From NCBI RefSeq assembly GCF_044324785.1, contig NZ_CP172127.1: 64,000 nt of DNA. The stretch is one strand, 5' to 3'. The stretch is from Escherichia coli (GTDB lineage: Bacteria > Pseudomonadota > Gammaproteobacteria > Enterobacterales > Enterobacteriaceae). This document shows positions 56,777 to 56,926 of the stretch, one piece after another. The position numbers were made by a program, and so were the translations under genes. Position 1 is the first letter of the stretch. Every line of letters starts with the position of its first letter. The notes under the pieces are model-generated. The model saw only the letters and a program-made list of their open reading frames with translations. It ran no database searches and was not told the origin of the DNA.

Positions 56777-56926
56777 TGCATGAAGCTGCCAAATGATGTC
56801 AACGTGGCTCATTTAGCAGCTTAACATCATCTTCAGTTATCACCGGCCCTGGAGAGTATCATCCATACGCATTACTTCCTGACAACTCATCGCCGGAGAG
56901 ACGATGAGTTGCAGGATTTCATATGA

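Follow-up and report, generated by a model that had tools for sequence, protein, structure and literature searches.

The mscM-yjeM interval

In the 64,000-nucleotide stretch of Escherichia coli DNA analyzed here (the window), mscM and yjeM converge on a short intergenic gap (Table 1). The mscM stop codon (TAA) occupies positions 56774-56776 and that of yjeM, on the minus strand, positions 56927-56929; the open reading frame list and the sequence agree on exactly 150 bp between them, as an earlier description made from the letters of this DNA (the sequence-only reading) had stated. When K-12 proteins were compared with the window by tblastn, YjeM matched at 98% identity over residues 1-500, and the best match of YjeN or YjeO anywhere in the 64 kb had an E value of 0.46, so that the two genes indeed have no homologue here by this search. 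No open reading frame of the YjeO or PF10840 type was found in the 64-kb window either. The sequence-only reading had further described the gap as holding only a hairpin, which proved incomplete: a second hairpin (56783-56822) and a 5' remnant of yjeN (about 56827-56866) lie in it as well.

Table 1. Features of the mscM-yjeM interval, in positions of the window
Feature	Position	Strand	Comment
mscM coding sequence	53453-56776	+	1107 aa, left flank; from the open reading frame list, matches annotated E. coli mscM
Gap between the convergent stops, probable scar of a yjeN-yjeO cassette deletion	56777-56926		exactly 150 bp
Hairpin 1, AAGCTGCCAAATGA...TCATTTAGCAGCTT	56783-56822	+	starts 7 nt after the mscM stop; identified by folding; no U-tract
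Probable deletion junction zone	56797-56830		short homologies GCAGC(T), (A)TCA and GCA; from alignments
Decayed yjeN 5' remnant	56827-56866	-	ATG at 56866-56864
Leftover RBS-like AGGAAG	56875-56880	-	8 nt upstream of the stub ATG; position conserved in intact alleles
Hairpin 2 (the one seen in the sequence-only reading)	56877-56915, core 56883-56911	-	11 nt after the yjeM stop; no U-tract
Last 12 codons and stop of yjeM, within the variable segment	56927-56963	-	K-12 alignment ends at 56964
yjeM coding sequence	56927-58429	-	500 aa, right flank; listed open reading frame 56927-58471

In K-12 MG1655 the order is epmA, yjeM (b4156), yjeN (b4157), yjeO (b4158) and then the convergent mscM (b4159). 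The placement of yjeN and yjeO in the sequence-only reading was therefore right: MG1655 does not have the 150-bp junction, as its yjeM and mscM stops are 705 bp apart with both genes inside. Alignment of the two sequences bore out an indel relative to K-12, in which 187 bp of the window (56777-56963) stand against 742 bp of MG1655 that do not align. The variable part includes the end of yjeM itself. In the window the protein ends in ELALD (type A), as it also does in N63-type E. coli, in a cryptic Escherichia lineage and in E. albertii, while K-12 and R14 carry a type B end, QWAVE (K-12) or QWVAE. Each end type was seen to pair with its own hairpin sequence after the stop codon, and the variable segment thus takes in the final codons of a core gene.

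The indel had also been described as opposite in direction to one in the ytfB-rplI block, and this holds, since there about 8 kb of the window (7355-15330) are absent from K-12. The block falls inside the ytfB-rplI interval, with yjfZ and ytfA on either side; at the corresponding place K-12 has only about 100 bp. Among the 5,426 complete E. coli genomes that made up our population set, 1,659 contain the block at a coverage of at least 80%, at a best identity of only 97.8%. Annotations in the carriers include an FAD-dependent oxidoreductase, an acyl-CoA:acetate/3-ketoacid CoA transferase, an MFS transporter, a sugar phosphate isomerase/epimerase and a 3-ketoacyl-ACP reductase.

Over the 12 kb from 50000 to 62000, the best identity of the window to any of the 5,426 genomes is only 98.6%, and it is 98.2% for the 1.1-kb junction region, although the 150 bp between the stops are 100% identical in many strains. 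Either the lineage of the window is poorly represented among these genomes or the region is a mosaic. Within mscM, positions 56614-56668 differ from the closest complete genome by 8 mismatches in 55 nt, mostly spaced by 3 nt (56626, 56629, 56632, 56635, 56638); this patch of third-codon positions looks like a short recombined or hypervariable tract.

Two stem-loops and a yjeN remnant

The hairpin quoted in the sequence-only reading, caactcatcgccggagagacgatgagttg, forms the core of hairpin 2, whose stem reaches further outward on both sides (Table 1). It folds with -27.2 kcal/mol (z = -5.85), and none of 200 shuffled sequences was as stable. Both hairpins reach z scores of about -5 to -6 and are thus stable stem-loops between convergent genes. 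The outer arm of hairpin 1, together with the left edge TGCATGAAGCTGCC, matches the hairpin that follows mscM in E. albertii. Hairpin 2 is 95-97% identical in E. albertii and in the cryptic Escherichia lineage, compared with 90-95% for their flanks. A search of positions 56600-57100 with the Rfam covariance models (E <= 1) returned no match. A weak promoter-like site on the minus strand (56885-56858) overlaps the start codon of the yjeN stub and was rejected, as such sites occur there no more often than by chance (0.6 expected).

The sequence-only reading had taken the hairpin at 56883-56911 for a bidirectional intrinsic terminator serving both mscM and yjeM. A strong stem-loop between convergent genes would be expected of such an element, and several relatives in which yjeM or epmA is the immediate neighbor of mscM have a single hairpin common to both genes, with an A-tract on one side and a T-tract on the other, that does resemble a bidirectional terminator (four loci serve as examples). 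The interval of the window, however, is built differently. A scan with a terminator consensus on both strands found no terminator-like site, and no T-run or U-tract stands beside either hairpin on either strand in the sequence; hairpin 2 is continued by AUUUCAUAUGA on the plus strand and by UCAGGAAGUAAUG on the minus strand. Directly after the mscM stop there is, moreover, an independent second stem-loop, and in alleles that carry yjeN, hairpin 2 lies between the co-oriented yjeM and yjeN, so that there it is a stem-loop following yjeM. The proposed bidirectional function is therefore not supported, and we regard it as unlikely.

Hairpin 1 likely forms the 3'-terminal stem-loop of the mscM transcript, and hairpin 2 likely that of the yjeM transcript. 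On the best reading, which draws on their conserved positions, each would mark where its own transcript ends, either because termination there is non-canonical or because the stem-loop protects an end produced by Rho-dependent termination. Of about 80 loci from the Enterobacterales, nearly all have a strong stem-loop within about 20 nt of the mscM stop, with unrelated sequences, and every locus that has yjeM shows a stem-loop after the yjeM stop. In many of these loci the structure after mscM is a textbook bidirectional terminator of A-tract, stem and T-tract.

Between the two stem-loops lies what is left of yjeN. We aligned the window with MG1655, with three other E. coli allele types and with two outgroups; positions 56827-56926 proved homologous to the yjeM-yjeN spacer and the first 40 or so nucleotides of yjeN in intact alleles. 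By megablast, the same segment matches DNA annotated as yjeN at 83.5% identity (E 2e-16). The stub retains its start codon and opens the frame ATG GAT GAT ACT CTC CAG GGC CGG TGA, which encodes MDDTLQGR and a stop: a 1-nt deletion shifts the frame and ends it after 8 codons. In the shifted frame the peptide PVITEDDVKLL matches YjeN residues 5-18, SRDPAITEDEIRAL. With the MDDT and ITEDD motifs and the start codon, about 13 codons remain recognizable.

The stub is only 71-76% identical to intact yjeN 5' ends, with indels; for the core of hairpin 2, identity to these references is 95-97%. Such a difference fits neutral decay of a pseudogene beside a constrained element, and the decay of the stub next to a conserved hairpin 2 suggests that the deletion is old. 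Where exactly the breakpoint fell cannot be placed, because several short homologies allow alternative alignments; at least three alignments with microhomologies of 3-6 nt fit equally well, and the junction is accordingly given as a zone rather than a base.

Distribution of the junction and direction of the event

In the population set, with the junction counted at a coverage of at least 80%, 2,394 of the 5,426 genomes (44%) carry the 150-bp form, 1,933 of them at an identity of at least 99%. yjeN and/or yjeO are present in 3,030 (56%); 2,153 genomes (40%) have both genes and about 877 (16%) have yjeO without a full yjeN. The class with the junction and the class with the genes sum to 5,424 of 5,426 genomes. 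The presence/absence survey of yjeN and yjeO that the sequence-only reading had proposed hence shows both states segregating, and the allele of the window belongs to the three states in which E. coli commonly has this site. A type A yjeM end occurs in about 275 of the genomes that carry yjeN. Among the strains with the junction are O157:H7, O55:H7, UMNK88 and 83972, which we take to span phylogroups E, A and B2; from their spread over different phylogroups, the allele would be widespread.

A shorter variant was observed in E. coli BS-04 (positions 601-735 of its locus), which spans 135 bp and in which only bases 9-150 of the 150-bp query align, at 95.1% identity; the scar itself is thus still changing by small indels. 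Several records labeled E. coli stood apart. NZ_CP025747.1 ('E. coli ML35') is 99.4% identical to E. albertii NBRC 107761, and this strain, SCPM-O-B-9504 and SCPM-O-B-7615 show 100% identity to E. albertii with a 136-bp junction query. The cryptic Escherichia lineage is represented by NZ_JAATUR010000006.1 ('E. coli SCPM-O-B-8794'), whose identity to the window of about 94% is at the level of a cryptic clade. The E. coli labels of all four are probably species misassignments.

Outgroups of E. coli keep one or both of the genes at this site. E. albertii (flanks about 91% identical) and the cryptic lineage (about 94% identical) both carry intact yjeN and yjeO here, together with a nearly identical hairpin 2. 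In Salmonella enterica, a YjeN homologue (69% identical) stands by itself in the yjeM-mscM interval, without yjeO; in one S. enterica locus (positions 5001-5514), REP-like hairpins, GCCGGATAAG..., were seen on both sides of this homologue. Because these three carry yjeN-yjeO or yjeN at the site, the genes are ancestral and were lost in the window, and because the gap still holds the ribosome binding site, the start codon and the first codons of yjeN, it shows a deletion and not an empty site. We therefore read the 150-bp gap as a scar, left when about 570-590 bp were deleted long ago from an ancestral arrangement in which yjeM, yjeN and yjeO converged on mscM, with a probability of roughly 0.9.

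The opposite direction of change would make the 150-bp junction the ancestral empty site, into which K-12-like strains gained yjeN-yjeO as a small horizontal cassette. The setting lends itself to such a view, as small cassettes come and go at the mscM 3' flank and mscM is directly convergent with epmA or yjeM in many Enterobacterales. An alternative cassette encoding a 237-aa protein and a DUF2645 protein occupies the place in Citrobacter, Enterobacter, Kosakonia and some E. coli, at times accompanied by IS630 or IS3, and the YjeN family is very small, with members in Escherichia and Salmonella only. An empty site, however, would not be expected to keep the yjeN start codon, its ribosome binding site and about 13 recognizable, frameshifted codons, and the gene stands at this exact position in E. 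albertii, the cryptic lineage and Salmonella. Nor does yjeN-yjeO of K-12 have flanking repeats, an integrase or a transposase. We consider a gain very improbable; the yjeN remnant already refutes it effectively, a chance similarity being unlikely at E 2e-16. An error of assembly or sequencing as the source of the short gap, for example a collapsed region, can be given practically no credence, as 2,394 independently assembled complete genomes share the junction, 1,933 of them at 99% identity to the window or more.

A footprint of mobile or repeated elements (REP/BIME, MITE or IS excision) was likewise considered and rejected: the 150-bp sequence is single-copy, occurring at 2,671 places in 2,669 genomes (median 1). 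Genes for transposases or integrases were absent from the site in K-12, N63 and R14, and IS630 or IS3 occurred only in rare complex alleles.

For the deletion, the following course may be proposed. The arrangement with yjeM, yjeN and yjeO convergent with mscM would already have existed in the Escherichia ancestor, and the deletion would have taken all of yjeO and all of yjeN except its first 40 or so nucleotides. Illegitimate recombination or replication slippage at microhomology may have caused it, as a one-time event. It would have left behind the stem-loop after mscM, the junction zone with its microhomologies, the frameshifted yjeN stub with its ribosome binding site and the stem-loop after yjeM. 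The scar could then have been passed on by descent and also exchanged by homologous recombination in the conserved genes on either side, and of the two stem-loops that were kept, one would serve the mscM transcript and the other the convergent yjeM transcript, each at the 3' end, in termination or RNA stability. We infer a single origin of the deletion from the junction being the same in all full-length matches. A parent allele, with an E. albertii-like left edge and the intact cassette, was not found in true E. coli within the set; only three records carried it, and these were E. albertii-like. The ML35 record was rejected as such a parent, since its identity to the window is about 90%, against 99.4% to E. 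albertii.

The lost genes and related loci

YjeO is a 104-aa inner-membrane protein of the DUF2645 family; the K-12 protein matches PF10840 (E 3.8e-41) as its sole domain match. YjeN matched nothing in Pfam, NCBIfam or PADLOC, and a sequence search of the PDB with the products of the lost genes found nothing. The YjeN family comprises 61 clusters among 5.8 billion proteins, and all hits with a named source come from Escherichia or Salmonella. An AlphaFold2 model of YjeN is helical, with a mean pLDDT of 68.7 from a shallow alignment of 12 sequences; when it was compared with the PDB by Foldseek, nothing better than E 3.3 was obtained, the top matches being ROQ domains (TM 0.42), and we assign no fold to the protein. 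In the literature, yjeN-yjeO are listed as one transcription unit and yjeO is induced 2.6-fold on overproduction of sigma-E (PMC2731931); yjeO is also among the genes that a pan-genome study linked to growth in milk (PMC11390585), and yjeN is counted among the genes lacking functional literature (PMC9976479).

In the older arrangement of the Enterobacterales, mscM is convergent with epmA, and yjeM lies between the two only in some genera; among the roughly 80 loci, we saw it there in Escherichia, Salmonella, many Citrobacter and some Enterobacter, for example. Cassettes that end in a DUF2645 gene occur beside mscM in Escherichia, Citrobacter, Enterobacter, Kosakonia, Leclercia and Pseudocitrobacter. 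The alternative cassette, which was observed in the last five of these genera and in a few E. coli, consists of a gene for a 237-aa hypothetical protein followed by one for a YjeO-like DUF2645 protein that is 46-56% identical to K-12 YjeO. The 237-aa protein had no match in Pfam, NCBIfam or PADLOC, and it shows no similarity to YjeN, which holds the corresponding upstream position; the DUF2645 partners of the two cassettes are 53% identical. In E. coli VCSW5 (positions 6507-9018 of its locus) and SX48, the alternative cassette stands in tandem with a K-12-like yjeO and IS630 or IS3. Across Escherichia, Salmonella, Citrobacter, Enterobacter and Kosakonia, the site occurs with both genes, with yjeN only, with yjeO only, with neither, and in tandem forms. 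One could imagine that the mscM 3' flank is a conserved hotspot for alternative small modules of two genes, each ending in DUF2645, perhaps an unrecognized conflict or stress pair that is toxin/immunity-like or linked to envelope stress. We think this improbable; if it were true, the scar in the window would record the loss of such a module and not of neutral cargo.

The absence of yjeN-yjeO is fully explained as an ordinary presence/absence polymorphism of accessory genes, a common one that routine RefSeq annotation already shows, the two genes being annotated in some genomes and missing from others. Both genes are dispensable: about 44% of the complete E. coli genomes naturally have neither, and in about 16% there is no intact yjeN. 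With natural nulls this frequent, phenotypes of yjeN or yjeO found in K-12 cannot be transferred to other strains by assumption. For lineage typing, the site could provide a simple structural marker that takes three or four states. A short intergenic gap that seems empty can, moreover, conceal a gene remnant that gives the direction of an event.

Compared with K-12, the window has the same flanking genes in the same order and orientation (psd and mscM on one side, yjeM, epmA and frdA on the other), at an identity of 97.4% on the mscM side and 99.0% on the yjeM side. It differs in that it has no yjeO and keeps only about 40 nt of yjeN, and in that the last 12 codons of yjeM and both hairpins after the stop codons are of another sequence type. 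The alleles of N63-type E. coli, the cryptic lineage and E. albertii share with the window the type A end, a near-identical hairpin 2 and the yjeM-yjeN spacer, and E. albertii also shares its left edge, TGC(A/G)TGAAGCTGCC; they differ from it by keeping the approximately 570-590 bp that encode YjeN and YjeO. The canonical bidirectional terminators found 3' of mscM in Kosakonia, Siccibacter and Cedecea take the same position and are strong stem-loops too, but they consist of an A-tract, a stem and a T-tract, whereas the window has two separate stem-loops without U-tracts. Closest to the window are O157:H7, O55:H7, UMNK88 and 83972, which are 98.7-100% identical over all 150 bp and have the same junction with no gene annotated in it. 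From the O157:H7-type allele the window shows no difference of substance, its flanking genes being about 1.4-1.8% off the best complete genome.
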